Shown in pieces: positions 1 through 58,256 of a DNA stretch of 64,000 bases. The stretch spans positions 10,261 through 74,260 of the forward strand of contig JAFGJB010000214.1 of assembly GCA_016929295.1 (NCBI GenBank), written 5' to 3'. Both the position numbers and the translations under genes were made by a program. Source of the DNA: Candidatus Zhuqueibacterota bacterium (GTDB taxonomy: Bacteria; Zhuqueibacterota; Zhuqueibacteria; Residuimicrobiales; Krinioviventaceae). Below the pieces are notes generated by a model. That model saw only the letters and a list, made by a program, of their open reading frames with translations. It ran no database searches and was not told where the DNA came from. Each line of letters begins with the position of its first letter. Position 1 is the stretch's first letter.

Positions 1-3000
1 GCCGATATAGTTATAAGAGGTGGTTTCAGTTCGTTCGAACACATCAAACCATTCGCCATCGCCAATGCGCATGCGCAGATCATACTCTCCGGACAGGCCC
101 GAGCCATCCCCGTCGTCGCCACCGCTTTCGCCCCCCCACGAGACGGTGAACTTGTTGGAGACACTCTGTTCCGGCGACGAGGCAGTTGCGCCGCTTGGCG
201 GGGCGCTGTCCAGACAGATATAAAAAGAATCTGTGGCGACATTACCCGCACTGTCGGATAAAATCGCTGCGAGCGAATAACATCCGTCATTCACCTCGGC
301 GATGGAGATGATAAAATCAATTTCCTGATTCTCGCCGCCGCCAAGCTCTGTCGGCGGCTCATTGACCTGGGCGCCGCCCAACAACAGGCGCATGGAATCA
401 GGATAATTCTCACTGTAGGTAATGCGAATCTGGGCGCTGGTCGTTGAATCTGGATTCAGCCACTTGTTCTCATGCAGCGCGTTGGCAACGATGCTATTGA
501 CAATGGTTGGCGCTGTGCCGTCATATTTGATGATGGACTGACCATTTTTGTGGAAATCGCTATTGCCGGCGCCGTCCTGCAGCCAAAAATAGACGGTCGT
601 GGCGCCCTCCCGATCATACTGCAGGGTGATGGGGGGATTGCCGCCGGCGGCGCCATGGTAATCGTCCGCTGCTGCGGGCGGCGTCTGAAATTTGTAATAA
701 ATCCTCGCAATGCCACTCGGATCGGTCGGCGATATCCAGCGCACAATAAAGTCGGATGAGCGACTCCAGCGCGGCGCCGCAAAGCCGTTGATGGTGATGT
801 TTGTTGGCGCTGCCGGCGCCACCGTGTCGGTGAACTGCGTCACAACTCGGGTGACGGATTCGGCACTGCCGGTGAAATTCTCCTTGTTGCCGACATTGTC
901 ATAGGCAGCCACCTCAAAAGCATAAGTGTGGTCGGTTGCGCCATTATATAAAACGGACGTGCCTTCATATCGCGCCTGCCACAATTCCCACGCGCCATCA
1001 TCCACCTTGACCCGCACATCAAAGATACCGCTCAAGCCGGCGCCTTGTTCGATCACCTCACTGACATCCCACGAGACGATGAAATCGCCTGGCTTGGTCG
1101 TGTCCGGCGATTGCGCTCTGGTATTTTGCGGCGCAGTGCTGTCAAGCCCGAGCATGGTTGTCGCTGCCGTTTTATTGCCCGCACTATCGGCAACTGTGAC
1201 ATTCAACGTGACGATATTATCCTCAAAGCCGGCAAAATCGAGCTGAAAGCGGGCCGAGTCGACGCCCTCTCCCGGAATGACGCCACCGGACTCGAACAGA
1301 CTCGACGGTTCAAGCAGCACACTGGCGGCATGGCGCTCCTGGAAATAGACGTAAAGTGATGTGCCATGCGGTGGCACGAGCGGATTGTACCAGTGGGTGT
1401 TTTTCTCGGTGAAGGCGGGTCGGGGATTGAGCACCAGACTGTCTATTTTGGCCGGCGTCTTATCAAATCGCAATAGCACCGACGCGTTATTGCGATAATC
1501 GACATTTTGCGCCCCGTCTTGCAGCCACAGATGCAGTGCTTGTCCGTTTTCTTTTGTCGCATTGACAGCAAGGGGCGGCTGGCCGATGAATGAGGCCGTC
1601 GTATCGGCATTGCCGGTCGGTTTATCGCCCAGCTTGTAGTACGCCTTGGGAGTGCCGGTCTGATCATCCGGCGCCCTCCAGGTGATGCTAAAATCGGCTG
1701 TCGGTCGCCAGGGACTCGGATTCGCGCCATTTGCCCGTAAATCAAGGGGAGCGCCCGGCGCCAGAGAATCTCCAAGCGCCGTATTGACGGTCGTCGTCGA
1801 TTCATGGGCATATGTCCGAGTCTCTTCATTGCCCAGCCAGTCGCGGGCAACGGCTTCAAAGTGATAATTGTTGCCATCCTGTGCGTTTTGATAGATCGCC
1901 GAACGTCCGACATGATCATCGAGCCAGCGCGTCCAGCCATCCTGATTCACTTTGACATAGACATCAAAAGTGTTGGACACGCCGACGCCGGCGTCTTCAC
2001 CGGCCGTCCAGCTCACCTGAAACGACGTAGCAGCCGATACCGCCGGAGAAGCGGCCAGACTGCCGTACGGCGGCGTCGAGTCCAGACGCAGAGTATCGAC
2101 GGACTCGCCCACATTGCCGGCGCTGTCCGCAATAGAGATGAACAGTGCGCCCGTCGTTTTCGTTCGGCCCGTCAGATCGAGCGCCACAGTTTTTTTCACT
2201 CCGATGCCGCTCTGCAGAGACGTTTCAGCGATGCTGTAATTGTAATCGGTGCTCTTCAATTGAAAGCTGGCCGCATATTGTTCATGATAGGTCACTTCAA
2301 AGGTAGCGGACGATGCCGTTTCCGGATTGAACCAATCCTCGCCATAGCCCGGCGCCGGAAAACGGGTGGCGACAATCCTGGGAGAATCGATATCGTTGCG
2401 AAGTAGAACGGCGCCGGCGTTTCTGTAATCGACGTTTCCTCTGGCATCCACCAGCCAGACATACAATCGCTGCTTTCCGCTCGATTGCATTGTGACGATC
2501 ATCGAACCCTCAGCCGGTCCGGACCCACCGATGCCGCTGGTATCCGTGTTGGAGACCGGGGCAGCGCCGAGCTTCCAGTAACTGGCGACAACGCCGCTTT
2601 CATCTTCCGGTTTTATCCAGGTGATGGTGAAACGGGAATTATTTGCCCACGGACTCGGAGAGGAGCCGTTCGCCAGGAGGTTGATCGGCGGAGGTGGCGC
2701 CTCCTTGTCGTTGGCCGTCAGATCGACGAGCACTTTTGCCTCGCCATCCGCTGAAAAAGCTTCTGCAAGCCCAACAAAATCGCGCGCGACGGCTTCAAAT
2801 CGGTACTCAACGCCATCCTGTCCGCTGAACAATTTTTCACCCGCTGCCGTGGCAGTAAACCAGAGCTGCCAGGCGCCTTCGCCGGCTCTGGAATAGATAT
2901 CATAAGCGGCAATGCCGCTGCCGGCGCCATCGCTGCCGGCACTCCAACTGACGGTAAAATCTCGTTCAGCGCTGATCGTCGGGGCGCTGGCCAAACAGTT

Positions 3001-5532
3001 CTGCGGTGCAGTGCCGTCCAGGCCGACTTTGGTGCTGATCGTCGTCCGATTGCCGGCCGAATCACGCATGGCCGCTCTGAGAGTATAAAGTCGATCGGCC
3101 GGATTGATAACAGCAAAGTTGAACGCTGCTACTACATCGCTGCCGGACGGCAGATCAACGCCGGTCGCAAAGAGACTGTCTGTCAGTCCGTCTGTCGTCA
3201 GCACAGCCTTTTGCGGATTGACTTCTGTATAGGAGAGAGAAAGCGCAAAATTTTTATCTTCTTTCGAGTTGTACCATGGCTGTCCATTGGTATCAACAAA
3301 CCTTTCTGCGGGCTGGTTGACGCTCAACTGATTGAGGGATGGCGCTGTTGCATCGCGGCGCAAGTCTATTTGCGCTGTGTTGCGATGATCACTATTTCCG
3401 GCGCTGTCGGCTAACCAGACATAGAGGGGTGCGACGCCATCACTTCCCATGATGAGAACCGCGGGACCGCCGGGCGCTCCGGTGTCGTCATAGTCGGTTG
3501 CCGATGTTGGTGGAGTTGCCAACTTCCAAAAGCTCGCCTTGATGCCGCTGTCATCCGGCGGCAGATCCCAGCGCACGGTGAAATCCTGACCTGCTTGCCA
3601 CGGACTGGGATTCGCGCCGTTGGCGCGAATGTTGAGCGGCGCCGGCGGCGCTGCCGCGTCAAGGGTGAATCGCCATTCCGGCGACATCTCGCTCCACCAA
3701 AGGCCGTCCCATGCCTGGACAAACCAGGAATAGTCGCCGTCGTTCAGAGAAAGCGGGCTAGTGAATCGCACTGACCCCTGTCCCTGAGGAACGGGAGGTG
3801 TTGGCGAGAAAAGCTCGGGATTGGCGGACGATTCATAAATGATCGCCTGTCCGTCATGCGGCGTAATCGTCAAGCGGAAATGCAATTGATCGTCGAGATC
3901 AGCATCGCCGGGCGTCAGCCATTCAAAATCAACGGCCGTCGCCAGCACCGCATTATTCTCCGGCGCAAGCAAGACCGGCGCTGCCGGCGGCGAGTACCCT
4001 TCAACATTATTCATCACCAGCGTCAGAATGCCCGTCGTGTCGCCAATGAGAAAATCGAGCGCGCCATTCCCATTCAAGTCGCCGATGTCAAAACTGATCG
4101 GATTAGAGGGTATCGGCACATTCACGATGTTGTTGAATTCACCCGCCTGGTTGAGCAGCAGCCTGAGAGAATTCTGATGACTGCCGGTGAATGCCAAATC
4201 AACATCCCCATCAGCGTCAATATCTCCATAACCCAGCCAGTTGGGGCTAATGATCGTGGAAAATACTTGTGGCAAAGACGTGAAATTGAATGTCGGCAGC
4301 ATGCGCGGGTCGCTGTTTTGGCGGCCGCCATTGCGATAGAGCAGGAGCTCGCTGCCGAGATAATCAACCGCCAAAACATCCGGCAGCAAATCTCCGGTGA
4401 CATCGATGCTTGTTGAAAGCTCCAGATCACGATTGCCGGCCGGCAAGTCCGCATCCGCGCTGCGATGGTACTGCGCCTCGCCCGCATTGGCATAGAGCGA
4501 AACGGTCGCTGCCGTGCTCGTATGTCCAACCCCGATGTCGATAAAGCCAGAGCCATTCAAATCGCGGCTGAATATGCTTTCACCATTGTTCGCTGCATCA
4601 AACCAGTGAACATCATCCGGATTGATTTCGAAATGCCCAGTGCCGTCATTCAGATAGACGAAAGCGGCTTGTGCGCTGCCCTCGTTTTTGACCAGCACAA
4701 TGATATCGAGAAAACCATCCTGATTCACATCATTGATCGTCGCACTGCGCGGCTCAGCCTTCCCATCCGGCACACTGTCAACTGTGAAAGTCTCCTCAAG
4801 GGATAGCGAGCCATTCGGTCGCATGTGACAGATGCTGATACGCGGCGGGATGGAGTATTTCACCCGGCCGCGATGAATGAGGACAAAATCGGGCAGCCCG
4901 TCCGCGTTCAGGTCAGCGGCATAGAGAGGGCGAACGCGATCGGGCAAGACAACGCTGCTGCCGAGCTCTAACTGATTGTCGCGGAAATAGGCCACCTGCA
5001 GGATGTCGACATTCCCCTTTGAGCCGGCAAATACGACATCGCTTTTGTCATCACCATCCAGTTCTACCGCCACCACGGCGGTCAGGCGAATTCCGGTTGA
5101 ATAGCTGGTCGTGGCGAAATGAACACCGCCGGCCCGGGAGGCGATATCGAATTCCCAGACAAAGCCCTTATCGAGAATCCCCATACCAGGATTGTCCTGT
5201 CGTGCCAAAATAGCGGTGATCCTGTCGCCAATCAAAAAACTCTCATCTGCGGTGAATACGACGGTCGAATCGTCATCCGTAAGAGCGACAGTGCCGGCAA
5301 TTTTGCCGCTGCGCATCCCATAGACCGTCAGCATGTCGGCAAAATAAAGCGCGCTCACCGGCTGGTTGAAATGTATCGATATTGGTTCATCTCGATCAAC
5401 ATCAACCTGATTGGGTTTGGGATCGAAGGCGACGATTTTCAGCGAGTCAAGGCTCGTCTGAGCAGCGGGATTCGCGGCGAAAAGGATGAAAATTGTCAGG
5501 ATGATGAAAAATTGTAGCAAAAAGCGTTGCAT
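1..5532 (-). CDS. Giant secreted surface/adhesin-like protein, partial (C-terminus lies beyond window position 1). It has a signal peptide, a bacterial Ig-like domain, an FG-GAP/VCBS beta-propeller region, and at least 4 tandem ~313-aa superrepeats of Fn3-like/Ig-like modules.
   Basis: Hand translation of the minus strand from ATG (complement of 5530-5532) gives an uninterrupted frame to position 1 (1844 codons), beginning MQRFLLQFFIILTIFILFAANPAAQ (signal peptide). An AAGGA Shine-Dalgarno lies 6 nt upstream. FG-GAP-like motifs are present: DGDDKSDVVFAG, DLNADGLPDFVL, INDVNQDGFLDIIV, GDIDADGDVDLAFTG, GDLNGNGALDFLIGD. A repeated module ANGANPSPW...F(T/S)(V/I)(R/T)W recurs at DNA positions ~3640, ~2690, ~1750 and ~810. 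A second repeated module D(S/G)TAP...SW..G.D.G.G(I/L)...D(V/I)...G.W..W....Y.FEAVARD recurs with the same period. The ORF track omits this frame because there is no stop codon inside the window. All plus-strand ORFs here are short and scattered across frames, as expected for antisense of a high-GC gene. Confidence 0.8.
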   Translation of the reverse strand, partial: MQRFLLQFFIILTIFILFAANPAAQTSLDSLKIVAFDPKPNQVDVDRDEPISIHFNQPVSALYFADMLTVYGMRSGKIAGTVALTDDDSTVVFTADESFLIGDRITAILARQDNPGMGILDKGFVWEFDIASRAGGVHFATTSYSTGIRLTAVVAVELDGDDKSDVVFAGSKGNVDILQVAYFRDNQLELGSSVVLPDRVRPLYAADLNADGLPDFVLIHRGRVKYSIPPRISICHMRPNGSLSLEETFTVDSVPDGKAEPRSATINDVNQDGFLDIIVLVKNEGSAQAAFVYLNDGTGHFEINPDDVHWFDAANNGESIFSRDLNGSGFIDIGVGHTSTAATVSLYANAGEAQYHRSADADLPAGNRDLELSTSIDVTGDLLPDVLAVDYLGSELLLYRNGGRQNSDPRMLPTFNFTSLPQVFSTIISPNWLGYGDIDADGDVDLAFTGSHQNSLRLLLNQAGEFNNIVNVPIPSNPISFDIGDLNGNGALDFLIGDTTGILTLVMNNVEGYSPPAAPVLLAPENNAVLATAVDFEWLTPGDADLDDQLHFRLTITPHDGQAIIYESSANPELFSPTPPVPQGQGSVRFTSPLSLNDGDYSWFVQAWDGLWWSEMSPEWRFTLDAAAPPAPLNIRANGANPSPWQAGQDFTVRWDLPPDDSGIKASFWKLATPPTSATDYDDTGAPGGPAVLIMGSDGVAPLYVWLADSAGNSDHRNTAQIDLRRDATAPSLNQLSVNQPAERFVDTNGQPWYNSKEDKNFALSLSYTEVNPQKAVLTTDGLTDSLFATGVDLPSGSDVVAAFNFAVINPADRLYTLRAAMRDSAGNRTTISTKVGLDGTAPQNCLASAPTISAERDFTVSWSAGSDGAGSGIAAYDIYSRAGEGAWQLWFTATAAGEKLFSGQDGVEYRFEAVARDFVGLAEAFSADGEAKVLVDLTANDKEAPPPPINLLANGSSPSPWANNSRFTITWIKPEDESGVVASYWKLGAAPVSNTDTSGIGGSGPAEGSMIVTMQSSGKQRLYVWLVDARGNVDYRNAGAVLLRNDIDSPRIVATRFPAPGYGEDWFNPETASSATFEVTYHEQYAASFQLKSTDYNYSIAETSLQSGIGVKKTVALDLTGRTKTTGALFISIADSAGNVGESVDTLRLDSTPPYGSLAASPAVSAATSFQVSWTAGEDAGVGVSNTFDVYVKVNQDGWTRWLDDHVGRSAIYQNAQDGNNYHFEAVARDWLGNEETRTYAHESTTTVNTALGDSLAPGAPLDLRANGANPSPWRPTADFSITWRAPDDQTGTPKAYYKLGDKPTGNADTTASFIGQPPLAVNATKENGQALHLWLQDGAQNVDYRNNASVLLRFDKTPAKIDSLVLNPRPAFTEKNTHWYNPLVPPHGTSLYVYFQERHAASVLLEPSSLFESGGVIPGEGVDSARFQLDFAGFEDNIVTLNVTVADSAGNKTAATTMLGLDSTAPQNTRAQSPDTTKPGDFIVSWDVSEVIEQGAGLSGIFDVRVKVDDGAWELWQARYEGTSVLYNGATDHTYAFEVAAYDNVGNKENFTGSAESVTRVVTQFTDTVAPAAPTNITINGFAAPRWSRSSDFIVRWISPTDPSGIARIYYKFQTPPAAADDYHGAAGGNPPITLQYDREGATTVYFWLQDGAGNSDFHKNGQSIIKYDGTAPTIVNSIVANALHENKWLNPDSTTSAQIRITYSENYPDSMRLLLGGAQVNEPPTELGGGENQEIDFIISIAEVNDGCYSLAAILSDSAGNVATDSFYICLDSAPPSGATASSPEQSVSNKFTVSWGGESGGDDGDGSGLSGEYDLRMRIGDGEWFDVFERTETTSYNYIG

Positions 5533-5560: not shown

Positions 5561-7528
5561 TTATAACACCTTACATCGGATATTTATTTTCTGATCAGGC
5601 CGAATAAATATTAAAGTGTCTGCCGGCGAAAGCTTGAATTCAGCCCGGGAAATTCGAATGCGATGCCATCCGACAGGCAGACTCTTGCGCAGAGGCGTCG
5701 CGTATTGCTCGGACTCTTGGTCAATAGTGACGAAAGCATAGCCAAAACGAGATGCATTGTCCAGAGCAACAGCGACTTCCCCGGAACCGACGTTATCGGT
5801 TGAGAGCGAAATCCGCTGATTGTTCTCGCGCAATTCGACGATTGTGCTCCAGGCAAAATCTGCTTTGGAATCAATAAAAGTCACGCCGATGGCGCCAAAT
5901 GGCAGCTGCAAAGTAGAGGGCAAATTTCTGGCCAAACTTTCTTCACCCAAACGTATCTTGTCGGCAAACGGCACTTTTTCAAATGTGAATGTCCCCAACT
6001 TTGCCACCGGCGTCAGCTCGATATTAAGAGACTTTTTCTCGTTTGCCATTTGAATGCGCTGCTGCCACGTCTCAAAGCCTTCTTTTTCTACGCGCAGCGT
6101 ATATGTTTGATCCGCAACAAGTTTGTCTATTGTCAGCAGGCCATCAGCGCCGGACTGTCCCCGATGCCGGCCATTGACAAAAACATCGGCCATGCCGTCG
6201 TGCGAGCCGGCTTTCACCGCTAACAGCAGATCGACATATTGCAAGACGGCGGCCTCCTGTTCCTGTCGGGGAGCTGTTTTTATCGCGTCCGGTCCCTCTT
6301 CCTCGGGCACAACCGCTGCCGTCTCTATCTGTTCGGACAATCGCTCATCAGCTCGCATTGTGGTCACGGAATCCACTTGCTGATTCATCTCTTCCTTCGT
6401 CGTTGTCGTCTCTTCCGGAGCGACATATTGCTCGACGACGAACTCATCATAGGTGCGCTGAAATCGTCTTTCATCTCGTGATGATAGATGGGTGAAAAGG
6501 ATGATGCTCAGCAAAAGCACCAGAAAAAGCATGCCCACGACCGCCGTATAAGCCGTTCTTTTTTTACTGCCGACGAGATTTTTTGACAGCGGATTCATGA
6601 AATCGAAAAAACCGCGCACGCGCGACAGTCCCGCCTCCTGTTGCGCCGGCGCACTGTGCGAAGGGACGTCGCTGGTTTCAGGGGGACTGAGGATGTTGAG
6701 AAGAGAGTTCAAACCGACTCGGCTCTGCGGCCGTGGATCAAGAAGAGAGAGCGTGATGTCGGAGACCGCATGGGAAATTTTCGGATTCTCCCGGTTGGGC
6801 GGAAGGATGGTGGAGCGTTTTTCCTGTTTGAGATCGACAATTTTTTTCTGCGAAAAAGGTAATTTGCCCAGCAGTAGTTGATAAAGCAGCACACCCAGCG
6901 CATAGGAGTCGTCCGGCATGGGTTGCGTCGCCAGTGCCAGGCTCTCTGGCGGCATGTATGGATTGACGGACAGCGCTACATCCTGCCTTTTATCGTAAAG
7001 AGAGGCAAGAATGACATCAGAGCCAAAGCCGAGGACCTTGACGTCATCTTGAAATTTCGCCAGCAAAACGACCTGCGGGCTCAACCAGCCGTGTCGAATA
7101 CCCCGAATCTGGGCATATTGCAGCGCTTCGGCTATTTGTCTGACAATCGTCAACACGCGTCTTTCGACGAGAGGGACATGCGCATCAAGCAACGACTGCA
7201 AAGATCGGCCATTAAAAAAGTCATAGACAAGGAAATGACCCTCAGCTGTCTCCTCGAACGCTCGCGGCAGGAGAATGGCATCGTGCTGCAAGGAAGAGGC
7301 TGAACGAAACATCTCGTACAAAAGAGCCACGAGCTCACGATCTTGCGAGACAGATTCATCCATCACCTGCACAAGATGGCGTGTTTCCGATTCTACATGC
7401 AGGGCTTCGAACAAGGTCCAAAAAGGTCCGCTGACGATGAGACGATGACTTTTATATCCTGGTATTTTCATGGATTCCACTGTCATTACTTTACGATTCC
7501 ATGCACAATATATGGAAAAGAGAACCAA
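5561..7528 (-). CDS. Membrane-anchored Ser/Thr protein-kinase-like domain (predicted pseudokinase), then a single TM helix and extracytoplasmic PEGA domain(s).
   Basis: A kinase-fold region carries degenerate motifs: IRHGWLSPQVVLL in place of HRDLKPENILL (catalytic Asp absent) and GFG in place of DFG. No VAIK lysine or Gly-rich loop is recognisable, although the APE-like PPE and C-lobe pattern YALGVLLYQLLLGKLPF are retained. The TM segment is AYTAVVGMLFLVLLLSIILF. The C-terminal PEGA-like region is VEKEGFETWQQRI. The gene lies 28 bp upstream of the giant gene on the same strand. Confidence 0.65.
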   Translation of the reverse strand: MVLFSIYCAWNRKVMTVESMKIPGYKSHRLIVSGPFWTLFEALHVESETRHLVQVMDESVSQDRELVALLYEMFRSASSLQHDAILLPRAFEETAEGHFLVYDFFNGRSLQSLLDAHVPLVERRVLTIVRQIAEALQYAQIRGIRHGWLSPQVVLLAKFQDDVKVLGFGSDVILASLYDKRQDVALSVNPYMPPESLALATQPMPDDSYALGVLLYQLLLGKLPFSQKKIVDLKQEKRSTILPPNRENPKISHAVSDITLSLLDPRPQSRVGLNSLLNILSPPETSDVPSHSAPAQQEAGLSRVRGFFDFMNPLSKNLVGSKKRTAYTAVVGMLFLVLLLSIILFTHLSSRDERRFQRTYDEFVVEQYVAPEETTTTKEEMNQQVDSVTTMRADERLSEQIETAAVVPEEEGPDAIKTAPRQEQEAAVLQYVDLLLAVKAGSHDGMADVFVNGRHRGQSGADGLLTIDKLVADQTYTLRVEKEGFETWQQRIQMANEKKSLNIELTPVAKLGTFTFEKVPFADKIRLGEESLARNLPSTLQLPFGAIGVTFIDSKADFAWSTIVELRENNQRISLSTDNVGSGEVAVALDNASRFGYAFVTIDQESEQYATPLRKSLPVGWHRIRISRAEFKLSPADTLIFIRPDQKINIRCKVL

Positions 7529-25734: not shown

Positions 25735-26835
25735 ATGCCATTCGCGAAAATAGAACCGGAACAGATCAGAGTCTTTCCGCTTGCGTCACGCGTGAGCAAG
25801 AGTTGTATCGAGAAAGTGGCCATCGATCCGGATCAAAAACCATCACCATCCGACAGTGACAGCGTTCTGCAAGAGACCGCGAAGCGAATCAGACGGGCGC
25901 GGCAAAAGGGAGCTGCGGTCATACTCGCATTCGGGGCGCATCTGATAAAGAACGGCCTGGCGCCGCTGGTCATCGAGCTGATGAGAGGCGGCTGGGTGAC
26001 GCACATGGCCACAAATGGCGCCGGCGGCATTCACGACTGGGAATTCGCCTGGCACGGCCGCTCCGAGGAAGATGTACGCGCCAATGTCGCGACCGGCACG
26101 TTCGGGGCGTGGGAAGAAACGGGCAAATATGTCAATCTCGCGGTACAGGTCGGCGCCCTCGACGGCATGGGCTACGGAGAATCCCTCGGCGCGCTGATCG
26201 AGAACGAAGGGCTTCATTTTCCCGACCCGGCAGAACTGCAAAGGAGTGTCACCGCATCGGCGGTAGACGACATTTTATTGGGCGCCAAAATCGAGCTTTT
26301 ACAAACGATGCGAAAATTCAAGTTGGCGAGCGGCCGATGGCGCATCGCCCACCCCTACAAAAAATACTCTGTCTTTGGCCAGGCGTTTCATCTCGGCATC
26401 CCGGCAACCGTCCATCCCGGAATCGGCTACGACATCATATACGTTAATCCCTACGCCAATGGTGCGGCGCTGGGACGAGCGGCGCACGCGGATTTCAAAA
26501 TTATGATAAAGTCGGTCGCCAATCTGACGCACGGCGTCTTTTTATCAATCGGCTCAGCCGTCATGGCGCCGCAAATTTTCGAAAAATCGATCTCCTGCGC
26601 CAACAATCTCATGATCCAGCTGAACGAGCCGATCGTTCACGATCATTTCATGGTCGTCAATGATCTGCAGGAGGCATCGTGGGATTGGCGTCGCGGTGAA
26701 CCGCCAAAAGAGTCGCCGGACTATTATCTTCGCTTTCTCAAGAGCTTTTATCGCATGGGTGGTGAGGTTCGTTATGTCGCAGGGAACAATAGAAATTTTT
26801 TGTTAGCGTTATATCATCTGCTCCGTTCCGCATGA
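25735..26835 (+). CDS. Deoxyhypusine synthase family (DHS-like NAD-binding) protein
   Basis: ILAFGAHLIKNGLAPLVIELMRGGWVTHMATNGAGGIHDW resembles the DHS core LGFTSNLISSGIRE...VTTAGGVEED. An AAGGAG RBS lies 6 nt upstream. The gene sits 10 bp after the preceding gene. The call rests on motif similarity only. Confidence 0.4.
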   Translation: MPFAKIEPEQIRVFPLASRVSKSCIEKVAIDPDQKPSPSDSDSVLQETAKRIRRARQKGAAVILAFGAHLIKNGLAPLVIELMRGGWVTHMATNGAGGIHDWEFAWHGRSEEDVRANVATGTFGAWEETGKYVNLAVQVGALDGMGYGESLGALIENEGLHFPDPAELQRSVTASAVDDILLGAKIELLQTMRKFKLASGRWRIAHPYKKYSVFGQAFHLGIPATVHPGIGYDIIYVNPYANGAALGRAAHADFKIMIKSVANLTHGVFLSIGSAVMAPQIFEKSISCANNLMIQLNEPIVHDHFMVVNDLQEASWDWRRGEPPKESPDYYLRFLKSFYRMGGEVRYVAGNNRNFLLALYHLLRSA

Positions 26836-26871
26836 GACGCTCGGCGTTGTGAATATTCGGAGGAGAAAGGG

Positions 26872-26892
26872 ATGCGATGTGTGTCATTTTAA
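26872..26892 (+). other. 6-codon sORF (MRCVSF) with a strong Shine-Dalgarno sequence. It may be a leader peptide or a chance occurrence.
   Basis: GGAGGAG lies 6-7 nt upstream of the ATG. The stop TAA runs directly into the tandem repeat array. Confidence 0.2.
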
Positions 26893-26935
26893 TTTCGTGA
26901 AAATTCGTGAGAAATTCGTGAGAATTCGTGATTCG
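26892..26935. repeat. Four tandem direct repeats of ATTCGTGA(G)A with a 10-11 bp period, followed by a T8 tract, in an AT-rich intergenic region
   Basis: The sequence is aATTTCGTGAAAATTCGTGAGAAATTCGTGAGAATTCGTGATTCGtttttttt. The period is about one helical turn. Confidence 0.6.
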
Positions 26936-27285
26936 TTTTTTTTCCAGAGTTATATGAATAGGTGTATTGATTGCGATCGATCCTTATGAAATATTGATAT
27001 TTACTGACACATTTTCTTAGCAAGTAAAGTAATCATTTTGCGAAATATTCCAAGTAATTGAAATTGATTTAGTTGCAACTATTCTCTTGCGTATCCGAGC
27101 TACCCCTTTTGTTGGGATGGTAAACTTTGGCCGGATTAAATAACGCTGCCGTCGAACGCTGGCGATTTTCGGCTCTCCTTGTCGCCGGGGGAATATGAGA
27201 CATCGCCACGCTGTTTAAAAATTTAAGGCTGCTACACTGTATGATGCTGATTGGGAATGATTGGGAGAATTGATAAAACGGGAGA

Positions 27286-28851
27286 ATGACAAAGTTGGGG
27301 AAGCGCCAGCGCAGCTTTAACGAACCAAAGTACGAAATCAACATAGAGTCCAAAGACCGGGTTACCATCAGGCAGGAGAAGATCAATCCGCTCTGGCGCC
27401 TTTTGAAGCAGATCCTCGTCATTTCTGCCATCGCTTATGCAGTGATGCTCGGCTGCGGATTCGTCTATAATCTCACGAGTCATTTGCTGACTCCGTCTCG
27501 AGTCACCATTTTACCTGTTCATAGCATCCACCTCGAGCCGCTCCCCGCACAGGCAGCTGAGGGCATCAATGTCTATATCGACGGACGTAAAAAACCGTTG
27601 GCGAAAAAGCTGACAGCGGAGGGAATCACCATTCCCTTCAGATGGAGGGGACAACACATCCTTGGCATCGAACATGTCAACAGCCGCATGGATTCACTGG
27701 CCTTCGCCAGAGAAAAGAGCAGGCTGGATTCTCTCAAGCTGCATAAACATAAACAGGATGCACAAGACCTGCTGCACGACTTTATTTTTCACAAAATCAT
27801 TTCAGAGCGAGATTTCGACACCTCGCGATTTTTATATTTTGTTCATCGCAAACCGTTCGCTGAAAAGGCGCAGCTGATTTTTTTATCGAAAGCGGACGAC
27901 TCCACCATACTGTTTGGACAGACGTTGACGAAAAATATAGCCGATCATTCTGTCTTGGTGCGAGATTTCCACAGATCCTTGTATTCCCGCGTCTCGGTCT
28001 ATAGTTCAAATGTCGATCAAGTGATGAATGGTTTTCTCGATGACCTCAAACGGTCCTATGCTGTTGATATCCCTTTGTTCAACGAGCTCGCCTGGTTTTC
28101 GGAAAACCGCATGAAGCGATTCCATTATGCGGACGAGATGAGGCAGCTGTTCAGGAGCTCGGTTTTCATTCTGCCGTTCATCGAGAAAAACGCACGGGGT
28201 GAAATAGTTGCCAAATTCGTTTTATCATTTGCTGATGTGGGCGCCATTGAATTTGAGCCGATTGAAATCAACAACATTGCGCTCAATGAGATCGATATTT
28301 TGCCGCCGGATGCCGCCCTTTTTGAGATCATCGCCGTCTATCTCCGCGTCTATTACGCATTTCTTTCATCCGGCAGAGTAGATGAATCGCACCTGCGTGA
28401 CTTTATCGCGGTCTGCAGCCGCCACAGCCCGAATGTCGATGCACTCGATCGCATCGGCAACCGAATTATGCGCCTCAGCTCGGCGCCGACTAAAACTCGC
28501 TTGGTCCGGATGGCGGATTTTTTCGCCAGGATCGAACATCTGCAGTGTCGAGCACTATATGACGAGTTGGCCGCTTTCTGGCAGAGCGGTCCCCTTGACC
28601 TTGGTTCAGTCGATCAATCCACTGCCCAGGAAAAAGAGGTTGTGCGCGCCATCATCAAATGGACCCTGGCGCTGAAGGAGAACAAGCATCAATGCGCCGA
28701 GAACGACTGGCCGACCGCCGGCCAACGCCTGGCCCTCTTTCATCAGGTCAAAAAAAGCGTCGATGAGACGGCGACACTATCGTGGCTGCGCCAGGAACCA
28801 TTGTACGCTGTCCTGCAGACGGAAATAGCGAACCTTGAGCAAAACTTTTAG
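27286..28851 (+). CDS. Hypothetical protein with a single N-terminal TM anchor, otherwise unrecognised
   Basis: A long ORF with coding-like composition. The TM helix is LLKQILVISAIAYAVMLGCGFVY. No motif I can name. Confidence 0.5.
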   Translation: MTKLGKRQRSFNEPKYEINIESKDRVTIRQEKINPLWRLLKQILVISAIAYAVMLGCGFVYNLTSHLLTPSRVTILPVHSIHLEPLPAQAAEGINVYIDGRKKPLAKKLTAEGITIPFRWRGQHILGIEHVNSRMDSLAFAREKSRLDSLKLHKHKQDAQDLLHDFIFHKIISERDFDTSRFLYFVHRKPFAEKAQLIFLSKADDSTILFGQTLTKNIADHSVLVRDFHRSLYSRVSVYSSNVDQVMNGFLDDLKRSYAVDIPLFNELAWFSENRMKRFHYADEMRQLFRSSVFILPFIEKNARGEIVAKFVLSFADVGAIEFEPIEINNIALNEIDILPPDAALFEIIAVYLRVYYAFLSSGRVDESHLRDFIAVCSRHSPNVDALDRIGNRIMRLSSAPTKTRLVRMADFFARIEHLQCRALYDELAAFWQSGPLDLGSVDQSTAQEKEVVRAIIKWTLALKENKHQCAENDWPTAGQRLALFHQVKKSVDETATLSWLRQEPLYAVLQTEIANLEQNF

Positions 28852-28858
28852 AAATCAA

Positions 28859-30349
28859 ATGCGAACGACGAGCTTTTTTCTGTTGCTGACGATCAGCAAG
28901 ATCGGGGCATCGACCACCGTCGAGGGTACGCTCATCACCCAGATAAAGGGGATAACTGACAACATTACGATTCGCAGCTCATCGAATCCGGATGTCGCGC
29001 AGCGACCACGCCCCGACGGATCATATAGTGTGCTGGTCGCGTCACCTGCAACTGACTATCTCCTCATCATCCCCGGAACCGGGGATGACAATCTCTATTC
29101 GCCGCGAATCATTCGAGCTGCCGAGGCGGGCACGGATACGCTATACATCATTCCACCGACAAATCAACCTCTGTCGATCATCATAGATAACAAGACGGGC
29201 AGAGACTTAAAATTTATCGCCGACAAGGCAGTTGTTCTGGATGAATTGGTCACATCCGCGAAAGACTATCAGCTGACGATTGTGTCGCGGCCGCAACAGT
29301 CGCACCTGCTCATCGCGGCTTTCACAGCGGGATTTCCGGCAGTGGTGAGAAAAGTTGCCATCATGCCGGATCAAAACAGAGGATATCTGGTCATTGACCG
29401 GCAAGATATTGGTCTCGCCCCCTTGCCCGCCGCATCATCCATACCGCCATATGCAGAGAGAACAGGCGGACGATCTGCCGCACCAGCGCCGCCGGCGCCG
29501 CCGCAAGACACACCCACAACCCGTACCTCGGACCGTTCCGGCGAATCCGATCGTGCCGAAGAGTTGTACGTTCCTGTGCCGACACAGACAGGCGTCCGTC
29601 CGCCCATCACGCGAGAACGAGATCAAAAAGAGCAGAGCGCATCCACAGGCGCCAGCCAGTCAGCCTACTATTTCTCCGACCGGTTGATTCTGAAAGATAA
29701 ACTGAACGGTTCACTGGGGATTCGCGGTGATTATCAAACATTTGCCCAGCAAGCCGAAGAGGTTCAGCTCACACACTATGGTGTTGCATTTTATAATCTA
29801 CGACTATTGCGCAACTATTTCGATATCAGCATGCAGGCGATAAACTCACAACAGTTGCCCGATGTCTACTATCGTGGATCGATTGTATGGCATCGATCAC
29901 CCTATGCCGCGATCGATCTTTCCTATAAATCAGCAGCAAATGACATCTGGCATTCGCGCTATGATGCCGCTCGCATGTCGCTTGGTGTAAACGGTTGCTA
30001 TAAGAGTCAGGGAGAGAGATTCCAAATGGGGGCAGGTGTACGTTTTCAACTGGATTACGGCGATTTTGGCGATCATCTCGACGATGCGACGGCAGGTCAA
30101 TTTCGCTATCTGCCTTCCGTCTATCTCATCGCCTTCAAAAGCATTGGCAGAACAACAGCGTCGGTCATGGCCGGCATGATCAATGAAGCGGCATATGCCA
30201 GCTTTGCCGTTTTAATCGCCCGACATATTGGCGTGACCTATGCGTTCAAAGACGCGAGTTTCGGCAGCACACCGTTGACCCCGCTTGAAAAAGAACGAAC
30301 CCACAAGATGACGCTCGAAATAGACTTGACATTGAAGAAAAGGCAATGA
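28859..30349 (+). CDS. Hypothetical secreted protein with a Pro-rich linker and a beta-rich C-terminal half (possible outer-membrane beta-barrel)
   Basis: Signal peptide MRTTSFFLLLTISKIGAST. Pro-rich segment APAPPAPPQDTPTT. The C-terminal half has alternating aromatic/hydrophobic patterns. An alternative TTG start at 28835 overlaps the upstream gene. Confidence 0.5.
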   Translation: MRTTSFFLLLTISKIGASTTVEGTLITQIKGITDNITIRSSSNPDVAQRPRPDGSYSVLVASPATDYLLIIPGTGDDNLYSPRIIRAAEAGTDTLYIIPPTNQPLSIIIDNKTGRDLKFIADKAVVLDELVTSAKDYQLTIVSRPQQSHLLIAAFTAGFPAVVRKVAIMPDQNRGYLVIDRQDIGLAPLPAASSIPPYAERTGGRSAAPAPPAPPQDTPTTRTSDRSGESDRAEELYVPVPTQTGVRPPITRERDQKEQSASTGASQSAYYFSDRLILKDKLNGSLGIRGDYQTFAQQAEEVQLTHYGVAFYNLRLLRNYFDISMQAINSQQLPDVYYRGSIVWHRSPYAAIDLSYKSAANDIWHSRYDAARMSLGVNGCYKSQGERFQMGAGVRFQLDYGDFGDHLDDATAGQFRYLPSVYLIAFKSIGRTTASVMAGMINEAAYASFAVLIARHIGVTYAFKDASFGSTPLTPLEKERTHKMTLEIDLTLKKRQ

Positions 30350-42472: not shown

Positions 42473-44815
42473 TTAATAGTGATAATAGCTGTACGCACTT
42501 TTCATATTTGCTTCTTGCGTGCCGTTCATGACGATGCCGACAAGATTTGCCGGGACGGAATGAAAGATGTTCAAACGTTCTTTGGCATTGTTGCGATTGG
42601 TCTTACCCGCGCGCACGACGACCGCGACAGCGTCCACCAGTGTGCTGATGACAACAGAGTCGGTCGCCGCATCCAGCGGCGGTGCGTCAAAAATAATAAA
42701 GTCGTATTTTCTTTTTACCTCGGCAACAAATCGCCGCATCTGCATGGAGCCCAATAATTCAGAGGGATTGGGAATCAAAGAACCGCAGCTCAGTACAGAG
42801 AGATTTGGGACATGCGTCGGCTGGATGAGTCCGACGAGGGTCGCCTTGTTGCTCAGATAGCTGGTCAATCCCGGATCCTTCGAGGTGCTGAAGGTGTTGT
42901 GCTGAACGCCGCGACGGAGGTCAGCGTCAACCAGCAACGTGTTCGTGCGTTGTTGCGCCATGATGATGGCGAGGTTGCTGGCGGTGAACGATTTCCCTTC
43001 TTCCGGGCTGATGCTGGTGATGAGCAGCGTTCTGATTTGCTCTGAACCTCGCGCAAATAACAGCTGTGTTCGCAGCGCGCGGTACGCTTCTCCAACTGGA
43101 GTCGGCGAGTAGTCGTGCGTCACTAGTTGGCGGTCAATTTGCGACGCTTTCTGGTCGTCGCGAAAATCAGGAATATCCTTGAAAGAGACAACAGGTATTG
43201 TCCCGAGCACCGGCAGGTTCAGATAACGTTCCACATCTTTGAGTGTATGCAGCGACCGATCAGCAACATCAATGCCGATGGAGAGGACTAGTCCGAGCAT
43301 GAATCCGAGTCCTGCGCCAATCATGACCTGCATATTTTTGCTCGGATTGACCGGCTTGGTGGGTCGAACAGCACGGTCGAGGATGCGGATGCCCGTATCC
43401 GAACCGGCGCTGGAGACCTGGAGTTTTTTCATTTCAACGTAAAAAGCCGTATACAATTCCTCGTCGACTTGTTTTTTTCTCTCCAGTTCCATCAATCGTC
43501 TCTCATCGCTTGGCAAGGCATACAATCTTGTTTCCAGTTCAGATTTTTCCTTGCGATGTTTCGATTCTTGCTCGGCAAGGATATTTCGATAGTTGGAAGC
43601 AAATTGCACGATTTTATCCTGCGTTTCTTTTATTCTCCTGGCATAGTTGATGACATCCTTATGTTCGGCGGAATACTGGGCATACAATCGATCATATTCC
43701 CTTTCCAAATTCCCAAGGTTTTGGCGATAAATCACCAATTCGGGCTCGTCTGCCATAGGGGTTAAATTGGCTATCTGTTGTATGACGACGCGGCGATATT
43801 CCATCTCATAGCCGTCTTCGGGATTATCAAGCTTTGTGAGCAGATTTGTCAGGGTCCGCCGCTGCGACGGCAGAGTTCGCAGGGCGGTCTCGTTGGCTGA
43901 GAGTTGATTCATCAGGTTCTTTTTTTCAGCATCGAGCGAGAGCGGATATTGCGAATAGAATCGGTGCAGATATTCTTCACTATTCTTCACATTTTCTTCA
44001 GCGGCCGCAAGGTTGCGGCTCAGCATGTCTCGATAAGTGTCAGAATCCATCAGCTTCAGCCTTTTGATTTCGGCAAGATAGGTCTCGGCAATGCGATTGA
44101 GCAATTTAGGTATCAAATCAGGATCTACATCTTCAAGCTCCAAAACCATGAAATTGCCGGCCCTGTTGAAACTTTTTGCAATCTTATAATCAAGGAATTT
44201 AAAACCTTTGATAAACGGCCTGATGCGGAAATTGAACTCTCCAGGTTTATAGCTGAAATTTGGATTGAGACGGAATGAAATCCCGTTGATGGAGCGAGGC
44301 GTATCGACGGCATCCCAAACATTGGCACTATCGACAGCGACGTGCACATCCCCTTTCTTTTGAAATAAATAATAGGTTCCCAGTTTATCAATTACTATTT
44401 TATATTGGGCTTCAACAGGATTTGTCGTTGTCTGATATTCCAGGAAAACCTCGTCGAGTTCCTTATAGACCGAGTCCGAAACGGCATATGCCAAGCCCAG
44501 GATTGCCGCCATACGCTCAGTGAAAGATTGGCTACGAATTTCTGCCTGGGTTTCGCCATCAAAAATATTATACTCGTCGCTGCCGACTTTTTTCGACTGA
44601 ATGACTACCCGGCATTTATAGCGTGGCACCTGGTTTTTGGCAACAAAGTAAAAAGGGATAGCAACAATGCAACTCAGACAGAGAATGAGCCACTTGCGCT
44701 TCCATATACCTTTAATGAACTTGACAAAATCTATTTGGTTTGTTTGCCCTGCATCAAATGACTCTTCAAATGCTTGAAAATCTTCCATCGCCATAGTTTT
44801 ACCTTCGCTTCTCAT
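42473..44815 (-). CDS. Polysaccharide co-polymerase / BY-kinase (Wzc/GumC-like): Wzz chain-length determinant domain plus a C-terminal tyrosine kinase with a Tyr cluster
   Basis: Two TM segments flank a periplasmic coiled-coil region. Walker A is ITSISPEEGKSFTASNLA. The C-terminal tyrosine cluster is SAYSYYHY. Confidence 0.85.
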   Translation of the reverse strand: MRSEGKTMAMEDFQAFEESFDAGQTNQIDFVKFIKGIWKRKWLILCLSCIVAIPFYFVAKNQVPRYKCRVVIQSKKVGSDEYNIFDGETQAEIRSQSFTERMAAILGLAYAVSDSVYKELDEVFLEYQTTTNPVEAQYKIVIDKLGTYYLFQKKGDVHVAVDSANVWDAVDTPRSINGISFRLNPNFSYKPGEFNFRIRPFIKGFKFLDYKIAKSFNRAGNFMVLELEDVDPDLIPKLLNRIAETYLAEIKRLKLMDSDTYRDMLSRNLAAAEENVKNSEEYLHRFYSQYPLSLDAEKKNLMNQLSANETALRTLPSQRRTLTNLLTKLDNPEDGYEMEYRRVVIQQIANLTPMADEPELVIYRQNLGNLEREYDRLYAQYSAEHKDVINYARRIKETQDKIVQFASNYRNILAEQESKHRKEKSELETRLYALPSDERRLMELERKKQVDEELYTAFYVEMKKLQVSSAGSDTGIRILDRAVRPTKPVNPSKNMQVMIGAGLGFMLGLVLSIGIDVADRSLHTLKDVERYLNLPVLGTIPVVSFKDIPDFRDDQKASQIDRQLVTHDYSPTPVGEAYRALRTQLLFARGSEQIRTLLITSISPEEGKSFTASNLAIIMAQQRTNTLLVDADLRRGVQHNTFSTSKDPGLTSYLSNKATLVGLIQPTHVPNLSVLSCGSLIPNPSELLGSMQMRRFVAEVKRKYDFIIFDAPPLDAATDSVVISTLVDAVAVVVRAGKTNRNNAKERLNIFHSVPANLVGIVMNGTQEANMKSAYSYYHY

Positions 44816-46233: not shown

Positions 46234-46309
46234 CTCTTGTTCATTCGATAGTCGTGCGATCCGACAAAAACAGAAAAATTAAAGCCTGTTGACAGAGCAC
46301 ACAAGATCA

Positions 46310-46325
46310 AGCAAAGTTGGTGCCA
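46310..46325 (-). promoter_or_regulatory. Sigma-54 (RpoN) promoter candidate, TGGCAC-N5-TTGCT
   Basis: The minus strand reads TGGCACCAACTTTGCT, with GG and GC at the canonical -24/-12 spacing. It lies ~75 bp upstream of the STAS gene start. Confidence 0.5.
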
Positions 46326-46534
46326 ATGGAAGATGTCATGCGGCGCATGCCTGAGAAATAAAACAGCACGATCCCGAATGACAGTAATTCTATATTTTTA
46401 TTGGTCTAATGAAAGAGAGGACGAGACAAATGACTATCAATTTGATGCGAGATGAAGCTGAAGGTTTAAAAAAAACACTGTTTGTCAATACACGATACAA
46501 AGATGTCCCACACTAATACAGCGCCGAAATGCAG

Positions 46535-48016: not shown

Positions 48017-48124
48017 TTAGTGACCTTAATGATAAAAGAGTGCTGCAATAACATCCCCTTGCATACGATTATAAGCAATTGAATTATGAATCTTTAAGTT
48101 AATAAAATTTTCGTGAAATGCAAT

Positions 48125-48154
48125 AAAAAAGGGTAACACGAGTTACCCTTTTTT
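48125..48154. terminator. Bidirectional rho-independent terminator
   Basis: AAAAAA-GGGTAAC-ACGA-GTTACCC-TTTTTT. It lies directly downstream of ybgF (minus strand). Confidence 0.6.
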
Positions 48155-48163
48155 CAGAATGAT

Positions 48164-50159: not shown

Positions 50160-50275
50160 TATTTTTCTCGTTTATGCTCAAGATATTAAAGTTGGCATTT
50201 AATGTCAAGTTATTTTTGACTCAAAATTAATGGTTACAATATTTTAGGTCAATTTATAAATGTGCGTTGAGAGGT

Positions 50276-52903: not shown

Positions 52904-52975
52904 TGGGGCGTCGGCAAGCGGCAAGCCACTGGGTTTTGGTTCCAGTATTCGGAGGTTCGAATCCTCCCGCCCCAG
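52904..52975 (+). tRNA. tRNA-Gln (anticodon UUG), CCA not encoded
   Basis: TGGGGCG/CGCCCCA acceptor stem, D-arm TCGGCAAGCGGCAAGCC, anticodon stem-loop CTGGG-TTTTGGT-TCCAG, and T-arm GGAGGTTCGAATCCTCC. Nearly collinear with E. coli tRNA-Gln. Confidence 0.8.
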
Positions 52976-52981
52976 CAGTCG

Positions 52982-53019
52982 AAAATGACGAAAGTCAATA
53001 TGACTTTCGTCATTTTTTT
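52982..53019 (+). terminator. Rho-independent terminator (perfect 16-bp stem, 3-nt loop, T-run)
   Basis: AAAATGACGAAAGTCA-ATA-TGACTTTCGTCATTTT, then TTTC. Confidence 0.7.
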
Positions 53020-53051
53020 CGTCGGATAATGTTACGGAAAAGCAACTTGCC

Positions 53052-55281: not shown

Positions 55282-55432
55282 AGGTGATGATCTCGTTCTT
55301 GTGCCCTTTTTCTTGCTGGCTGCTATTTCTGCAAATCCCATTCATCCTGCCGATAGGCATGCGCCTGACATTTAGACGTTGATAAATTTGTTATTTTCAT
55401 GTAACTTTGGCCAATGAAAAAAGGAGGACATT

Positions 55433-56463: not shown

Positions 56464-56482
56464 CCGGAGAGAAAGGACACCT

Positions 56483-56704
56483 ATGCTGAAGAAGAAAAGA
56501 ATATGTCGTTTTTGCGAAGAGAAAATCGACTATATTGATTTCAAGGATGATAAACGACTGAGCCGTTTCACCACCGAACAGGGCAAGATTATACCTCGCC
56601 GGACGAGCGGAACGTGCGCTAAACACCAACGTCAGCTCGTCAAATCGATAAAAATCGCTCGTGAACTGGCGCTGATTCCCTATATTTCTGACTTGGCCAA
56701 GTAA
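56483..56704 (+). CDS. rpsR: 30S ribosomal protein S18
   Basis: [17 protein letters not shown]...[23 protein letters not shown]. Confidence 0.9.
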
Positions 56705-56726
56705 CCATAGAATAGGAAAGCTGCGA

Positions 56727-57910: not shown

Positions 57911-58006
57911 ATCAAAAAATTGATTGACTTTCAGATAATTAACCCGTAGTTTTAATGTTGAAATTAAACTTACAACCACCGGATATCAAAAGACCAGGAA
58001 AGACTC

Positions 58007-58198
58007 ATGGAAAACTCGTATCCAGCATGCCTGAAATGCAATATTGGAGTGCTCATTCCACTTTCAGATTACGGACGAGAGGGCTCATCCCTTCGTTATA
58101 AAGCATGGGTGTGCACCAATCCCGAATGCGGATTCAGCATTCGTATTGACAATGGTGAAATCAGTCGAGGCAACGAGATTCGAATGACGACGAAATGA
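58007..58198 (+). CDS. Small zinc-ribbon protein
   Basis: CLKC...CTNPECGF two CxxC pairs. 63 aa. Confidence 0.4.
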   Translation: MENSYPACLKCNIGVLIPLSDYGREGSSLRYKAWVCTNPECGFSIRIDNGEISRGNEIRMTTK

Positions 58199-58256
58199 AA
58201 AATCGACAGGGGATCTCTCACACTTGCATTCAGTACCACTGACTTGAATATGTTGT

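Follow-up and report, generated by a model that had tools for sequence, protein, structure and literature searches.

The 450-bp spacer between the gene for a GSU2086-family protein and two downstream genes for hypothetical proteins appears to be composed of two parts, a lineage-specific filler grown by replication slippage (26836-27187) and a conserved control region of the two downstream genes (27188-27297). We assign a probability of roughly 0.6 to this reading and, on the whole, regard the spacer as an ordinary one. A first-pass annotation of the same DNA had proposed a complex regulatory region for the two genes, involving a repeat array, a short SD-led ORF and possibly an attenuator. A conserved and probable control sequence was indeed found at 27188-27297, but neither the array, nor the short ORF, nor the attenuator could be retained as parts of it. 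All positions refer to the analysed window, a stretch of 64,000 nucleotides, and the features of the spacer and its neighbours are listed in Table 1.

Genomic context and synteny

The window originates from a MAG of candidate division KSB1, and a protein annotated as hypothetical in a KSB1 MAG shows 100% identity to the 521-aa product of the first downstream gene. The GSU2086-family gene ends with a TGA stop codon at 26833-26835 and is preceded by a GHL10 glycosyl-hydrolase-like gene, while the uvrB gene is located farther upstream in divergent orientation. On the opposite strand downstream, there are an LPG-synthase-TM/hexapeptide acetyltransferase gene and a polysaccharide pyruvyl transferase gene. 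The context of the spacer consists of chromosomal core genes (uvrB, lptE, coaE and genes for ribosomal proteins).

The same order of the GHL10 gene, the GSU2086-family gene, a 510-521-aa gene and a ~500-aa gene was present in five KSB1 relatives with 43-61% protein identity, representing all five relatives with contigs of sufficient length, and the 3' end of the GSU2086-family gene aligned well with those of the five relatives. Because this gene order is kept, the segment of 26.8-30.4 kb is not an insertion, which refutes one of the options considered in the first-pass annotation. The orthologous spacers of the relatives are 113, 203, 197, 240 and 214 bp long, compared to 450 bp in the window. 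A Logan assembly of run SRR13394437, which was built separately, contains the same spacer sequence (locus L001, 0 mismatches over 7669 bp). The closest relative available in the databases exhibits 61% protein identity, and a search for further relatives among metagenome contigs resulted in 120 pattern matches, none of which was confirmed.

Table 1. Positions of the features in the spacer and its neighbourhood, with the basis of each assignment
Feature	Position	Strand	Basis
Upstream gene, GSU2086-family protein, 366 aa ("DHS-like" gene of the first-pass annotation)	25735..26835	+	NCBIfam NF052581, E 1.5e-95, above curated cut-off
Lineage-specific, mostly AT-rich spacer part	26836..27187	.	no counterpart in relatives
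GGAGGAG (26859-26865) and 6-codon ORF, ATG 26872 to TAA 26890-26892, MRCVSF	26859..26892	+	read directly
Tandem array, unit (A)TTCGTGA(G)A(A), 4 copies and one truncated copy, period 10-11 bp	26893..26936	+	Tandem Repeats Finder; repeat family D1
T8 tract ending the array	26936..26943	+	read directly; no terminator-like site found; fold z-score 0.09
Second local tandem duplication, AACGCTGCCG / AACGCTGGCG, 13 bp apart	27142..27164	+	repeat search, family D3
Bipartite motif GGGAAT-N16-CTGTT, candidate ECF-sigma-type promoter	27189..27215	+	present in the window and in L001-L007
10-bp tandem duplication (TGATTGGGAA x1.9) of a conserved GGGGAA-type box	about 27249..27266 (also 27248-27266)	+	Tandem Repeats Finder, score 38
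SD GGGAGA (GGGAGG or GTGAGG at the aligned place in relatives)	27280..27285	+	alignments
Gene 1, KSB1-restricted hypothetical membrane-anchored protein, 521 aa	27295..28851	+	probable start TTG 27295, from the relatives' aligned starts
Gene 2, hypothetical protein, about 500 aa, always beside gene 1	28835..30349	+	synteny

A conserved promoter-like motif upstream of the gene pair

The homology of the spacer to those of the relatives begins exactly at 27188, as a query comprising 27141-27330 aligned at the orthologous place only from query position 48, which is equivalent to 27188. The bipartite motif GGGAAT-N16-CTGTT occurs once in the window (0.04 expected) and was detected exactly once, at the orthologous site, in each of the loci L001-L007 and the window, compared to 0/217 unrelated loci. 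The more distant relatives L008 and L225 have kept the sequence GGGGA, but not the GTT element. The motif is located 70-85 nt upstream of the start codon, and the exact spacing is preserved in 5 of 7 KSB1 lineages.

Written as GGAAT (27190-27194), N18 and GTT (27213-27215), the motif corresponds to the GGAAT-N18-GTT consensus of ECF sigma promoters (PMC10012870; bioRxiv 10.1101/172254). The same consensus is known for SigR of S. coelicolor and a very similar one, GGAAT-N18-19-GTT, for SigH of C. glutamicum, and an ECF-like motif marks transcription starts in Chlorobaculum. The site shares the -35 element GGAAT, the 18-nt spacer, the -10 element GTT and the kept spacing with SigR/SigH/SigE-type ECF promoters (GGAAT/C-N17-19-GTT), and it contains the features expected for an ECF sigma-type promoter, namely a -35 GGAAY and a -10 GTT within 17-19 nt, both conserved at orthologous sites. 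It differs from these promoters in that the described consensus comes from Actinobacteria, in that the flanks GGGGAAT and CTGTTTA are conserved beyond the published ECF core, and in that two lineages do not contain the GTT. From the match of eight consensus bases together with the conservation, we infer a candidate internal ECF-type promoter at 27190-27215, which would drive the expression of the two KSB1-specific genes. Transcription would then start near 27221-27224, resulting in a leader of about 72 nt which would carry a GGGGAA-type box at -32, the SD and a TTG start codon inside another GGGGAA box.

Ten ORFs of the window, mostly 150-240 aa in length, were examined as candidate ECF sigma genes, and none proved to be one. 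Reading the conserved motif as a sigma-54 promoter was discarded by inspection, as it contains no GG-N10-GC. Elsewhere in the window, we observed a near-perfect sigma-70 promoter (TTGACA-N17-TAATAT) on the minus strand of the segment 50160-50275, indicating that canonical -35/-10 promoters appear to be in use in this KSB1 genome, as well as TAnnTTTG motifs of the Bacteroidota type upstream of rpsF (55382-55410).

Start codon and products of the downstream genes

In the relatives (L002, L004, L006, L007, L008 and L225), gene 1 starts at an aligned TTG GGG AAA which is nearly invariant at the DNA level. The aligned TTG of the window is located 9 nt after the SD, and the annotated start codon ATG 27286 directly abuts the SD, suggesting that TTG 27295 is probably the true start of gene 1 and that the start annotated for the 521-aa protein probably needs to be shifted to this position.

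The most conserved part of the gene 1 product consists of its first ~35 residues, which constitute a cytoplasmic segment in front of a single transmembrane helix. We found 7 homologues among 5.8 billion proteins, including the identical one, all of them KSB1 or unnamed. Neither gene 1 nor gene 2 gave a match in Pfam, NCBIfam or PDB. An AlphaFold2 model of the gene 1 protein, calculated from a 7-sequence alignment, reached a pLDDT of 58 and a pTM of 0.37 and was therefore too poor for a fold search.

GGGGAA-type boxes

Boxes of the type [GT]GGGA[AG] are present on the coding strand only, at about -110, -32 and +2 from the start codon of gene 1. They are located at 27188, 27252, 27262 and 27297 in the window, at 5841, 5890, 5969 and 6002 in L004, and at 5838, 5888, 5970 and 6002 in L006, the positions in the latter two loci including a further box at -161/-163. 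The -110 box overlaps the -35-like element, and the +2 box covers the TTG start codon. Within the segments from -170 to +12 of six loci, we counted 20 GGGGAA-type boxes compared to an expectation of 0.64 derived from the remaining parts of these loci, a statistic that was defined post hoc and is based on related rather than independent loci. The only four-box cluster in the window is the one in this region.

The box at -32 has been duplicated in the window, where copies are found at -43/-33, whereas L002, L004 and L006 contain the box at -32 and L007 a GGGGAC at -33; a weaker 10-bp duplication is present at the same place in L006. The short repeats before the gene that had been recorded as occurring twice each were both confirmed. 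The copies of GATTGGGA at 27249-27256 and 27259-27266 are due to the 10-bp duplication of the -32 box, and the second of the copies of GGGAGAAT at 27263-27270 and 27280-27287 represents the SD plus ATG 27286. It is conceivable, if rather doubtful, that the GGGGAA(T) boxes serve as recognition sites of a candidate regulator controlling the KSB1-specific two-gene module beside the exopolysaccharide gene cluster. Such a regulator could be a DNA-binding protein or, if transcription starts upstream, an RNA-binding translational repressor bracketing the SD in analogy to CsrA acting on GGA motifs. If this were true, the 10-bp duplication in this genome would add an extra site.

The lineage-specific part of the spacer

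The part of the spacer in front of 27188 did not show any similarity when 26836-27140 was compared with L002, L004, L006, L007 and L008 by alignment and sensitive BLAST (best E 0.89). The repeat array, the T8 tract and the 6-codon ORF are all located inside the non-conserved part 26836-27187. Three separate small tandem duplications are present in the spacer, with units of 10-11 bp (~4.5x, 26893-26936), 13 bp (2x, 27142-27164) and 10 bp (2x, at 27249-27266 inside the conserved part), which fits growth of the spacer by slippage. We propose that 26836-27187 represents non-coding filler which would have been enlarged by local tandem duplication via replication slippage, and the ATTCGTGA array would be a by-product of this filler rather than a conserved regulatory device, as would the T8 tract and the 6-codon ORF with its SD.

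The repeat array

The array contains full copies of TTCGTGA starting at 26894, 26904, 26915 and 26925, corresponding to spacings of 10, 11 and 10 bp, and a truncated fifth copy (TTCGT, 26932-26936) runs into the T8 tract. Tandem Repeats Finder returned a period of 10 with 3.6 copies, 93% matches and a score of 62. Because this is the highest score of any tandem repeat in the 64-kb window, we regard the array as a real duplication product rather than a chance occurrence. The four tandem copies at 10-11 bp distance followed by T8 that had been reported before are thus present with respect to array, spacing and T tract, but exact ATTCGTGA occurs in only three of the array copies, and the first copy reads TTTCGTGA.

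The array unit is not a recurrent element of the window: ATTCGTGA was seen five times compared to 3.7 expected, the two extra copies being unrelated singletons, and the 11-mer unit with 2 mismatches was not enriched (20 seen, 27 expected). The proposed check for further arrays of the unit did not detect any elsewhere in the 64-kb window, either exact or with 2 mismatches, and the unit is without counterpart in the orthologous spacers of the five KSB1 relatives. A scan of 185,579 species genomes revealed three TTCGTGA at 10-11-bp spacing in at least 119 loci from many phyla. In a viral collection, such heptamer arrays were found at 22 loci for TTCGTGA, compared to 31, 29 and 15 loci for the control heptamers TGACGTT, AGTGCTT and GTTCGAT of identical base composition. 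Because the controls are equally common, the TTCGTGA arrays belong to a general background of 10-11-bp minisatellites which do not share a motif, and we dropped the idea of a widespread shared motif. Inverted CACGAA copies or long inverted repeats border some of the TTCGTGA arrays of unrelated genomes (L103, L124, L026, L056, L025, L107 and L072); the array of L026 has a 24-nt inverted repeat pair, and such loci resemble small palindromic elements.

Among known repeat types, the array agrees in all features considered with bacterial intergenic minisatellites derived from slippage. It is a lineage-specific head-to-tail array of 10-11 bp units with decaying end copies, it is accompanied by two further small duplications in the same spacer, and arrays of arbitrary heptamers are similarly frequent across unrelated genomes. 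Plasmid or phage iterons likewise consist of direct repeats adjoining AT-rich DNA, but they have units of about 17-22 bp and an associated rep gene, whereas the array has a 10-11-bp unit and no rep gene. Iterons of a replication origin were rejected because of this unit length, the neighbouring genes (GHL10-like, GSU2086-family and two hypothetical genes), the chromosomal surroundings with uvrB, lptE and ribosomal protein genes, and the missing similarity to plasmids or phages.

The first-pass annotation had interpreted the array as cooperative binding sites or iterons and had conceded that absence of the motif elsewhere and missing conservation of the region would speak against its view. Both were observed, within the window and against the five relatives, respectively, and the arrays are no commoner than those of control heptamers, so that this interpretation was not supported. 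A more specific form of it would be that the array provides species-specific binding sites for a direct-repeat regulator of the OmpR/PhoB-type winged-helix family, which would act on an additional promoter of the gene pair, located upstream, and activate or repress it by binding on one helix face. In Pho boxes, heptamers are directly repeated about every 11 bp and lie on the same face of the helix. The array resembles such Pho-box-like arrays in all three respects, and its four to five heptamers, which are in direct orientation and 10-11 bp apart, show the phasing a winged-helix activator would use. In addition, a weak -10-like sequence (TATATG, 26951-26956) follows 19 nt past the last full copy, and there is a weak sigma-70-like site at 27058-27085. 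However, the three promoter-like sites of the spacer are not above the number in shuffled sequences (1.4 +/- 1.2), the unit is missing from the rest of the 64 kb, the five orthologous spacers contain no counterpart, and the heptamer arrays are no more frequent than those of the controls. Compared to Pho-box-like arrays, regulon-wide recurrence (as judged from 64 kb), conservation at orthologous sites and a defined promoter geometry are all missing. The absent conservation is weak evidence against the function of a young, species-specific array, because no relative is closer than 61% protein identity. In summary of these points, we consider a binding function of the array unlikely.

An insertion remnant as a possible origin of the AT-rich block

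The second alternative to filler grown by slippage traces the AT-rich segment 26847-27140 back to a small inserted element or to foreign DNA that has since decayed, with the repeats forming part of the remnant. The spacer is 210-340 bp longer than those of the relatives, and its GC content of 0.25-0.31 around 26850-27140 is far below that of the coding regions (0.51). The sharp GC drop pointed out in the first-pass annotation was therefore seen, but this level is usual for true spacers of this genome, which exhibit values of 0.27-0.41 (46234-46534, 48017-48163, 50160-50275 and 57911-58256), so other native spacers are equally AT-rich. Short motifs resembling each other are found on either side of the AT-rich block, ACGCTCGGCG at 26837-26846 and ACGCTGCCG / ACGCTGGCG at 27143-27164, and these flanking ACGCTSSCG motifs are weakly suggestive of an insertion. 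Against this origin, terminal inverted repeats were not found inside the spacer, the AT-rich block is not enclosed by a pair of inverted repeats, a self-BLAST did not reveal a second copy in the window, and searches of phage and plasmid collections as well as an exact scan of metagenome contigs did not give a match. A MITE or IS remnant was not supported, since terminal inverted repeats and multiple copies were found neither in the window nor in the searched collections. The suggested scar, from a small non-coding insertion, could go with the excess length of the spacer, but we regard this origin as improbable.

Mini-ORF, RNA structure and terminators

The SD-led 6-codon ORF exists as described before, with GGAGGAG, ATG and the peptide MRCVSF all in place, but it is neither beyond chance nor conserved. 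The arrangement GGAGG-N4-10-ATG occurs 11 times in the window, with 9 of the 11 opening ORFs of less than 90 codons, the shuffled spacer gave P = 0.058 for it, and the ORF is absent from the orthologous spacers of the relatives. It is located about 315 nt upstream of the conserved promoter-like motif, which is thus placed between the ORF and the gene.

A leader-peptide attenuator consists of a short ORF in the leader, followed by alternative hairpins and an intrinsic terminator. Scanning the spacer for terminator-like hairpins did not yield any, which agrees with the previous statement that it is not a simple terminator. The T8 tract was rejected as the tail of an intrinsic terminator on the basis of the scan; in front of it, base pairing is limited to an A/U-rich stem of 4 bp. 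The genome uses intrinsic terminators, as illustrated by the canonical hairpin and T-run (~52985-53020) following the tRNA-Gln gene (anticodon ttg, 52904-52976); therefore, the absence of a terminator after 26835 is informative, and read-through from the GHL10 and GSU2086-family genes probably adds to the transcription of the gene pair. Another terminator of bidirectional appearance was noticed within 48017-48163.

The predicted folds of 26820-26960 and of the whole spacer were no more stable than those of shuffled sequences (z-scores of 0.09 and 0.96, respectively), and RNAalifold on five leaders gave 5 pairs and no covariation. Searching the spacer against Rfam 15 (E <= 10) yielded only a match of 12.7 bits (E 9) to an unrelated insect lncRNA model, and tRNA-Gln was the only Rfam match of the whole window. 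The proposed check by RNA folding and Rfam thus revealed no structure, no family and no covariation in the spacer, and a structured RNA or riboswitch was rejected on these grounds. The suggested leader peptide or attenuator did not hold either, given the unconserved and unremarkable ORF, the missing terminator, the folds no better than those of shuffles and the intervening promoter-like motif.

It is very improbable that the spacer codes for an unannotated small protein, either a 46-aa GTG ORF or the 6-codon peptide as an attenuation leader, or for a small RNA. The strong SD 8 nt before ATG 26872 would fit such a product, as would the two CxxC motifs (CDVC and CIDC) in the 46-aa ORF (26849-26989), which reads through the array. 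However, the 46-aa ORF lacks its own SD, searches of Pfam and of 5.8 billion proteins did not return a family or a homologue for it, gene callers did not call a gene at this position, and the frame of the ORF crosses the repeat with a span of 31 nt, which is not a multiple of three. The minus-strand ORFs of the spacer had no Pfam match and were rejected together with it as small-protein candidates. An RNA product is opposed by the Rfam, terminator and folding results given above, and none of these features is conserved in the relatives.

Other features of the window

Some further observations were made outside of the spacer region. The segment 38804-40012 comprises 1.2 kb without an ORF of >=90 aa in a tightly packed region and gave no Rfam or tRNA match at the gathering threshold. 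The apparent gap at 56464-56726 contains a short unlisted S18-like ORF, and that at 57911-58256 a small Cys-rich zinc-ribbon-like ORF (MENSYPACLKCNIGVL...CTNPECGF...). A second tandem repeat of period 10 (ATATTCTTCAC x2.9, Tandem Repeats Finder score 48) is located at 43970-44000 inside a 780-aa minus-strand ORF (42473-44815). The first part of the window (1-5200) contains only short ORFs and long GC-rich gaps (0.52-0.60), unlike the rest, and may represent a different kind of region or one with poorly predicted genes.

Significance

We advise against annotating the phased repeats and the mini-ORF as a regulatory array, as iterons or as an attenuator. The findings have little importance beyond annotation, and the useful outcome is a candidate ECF-type promoter together with conserved GGGGAA boxes before a gene pair which has been found so far only in KSB1 and is located beside exopolysaccharide genes. 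They may provide a starting point for studies of regulation in this uncultured phylum.
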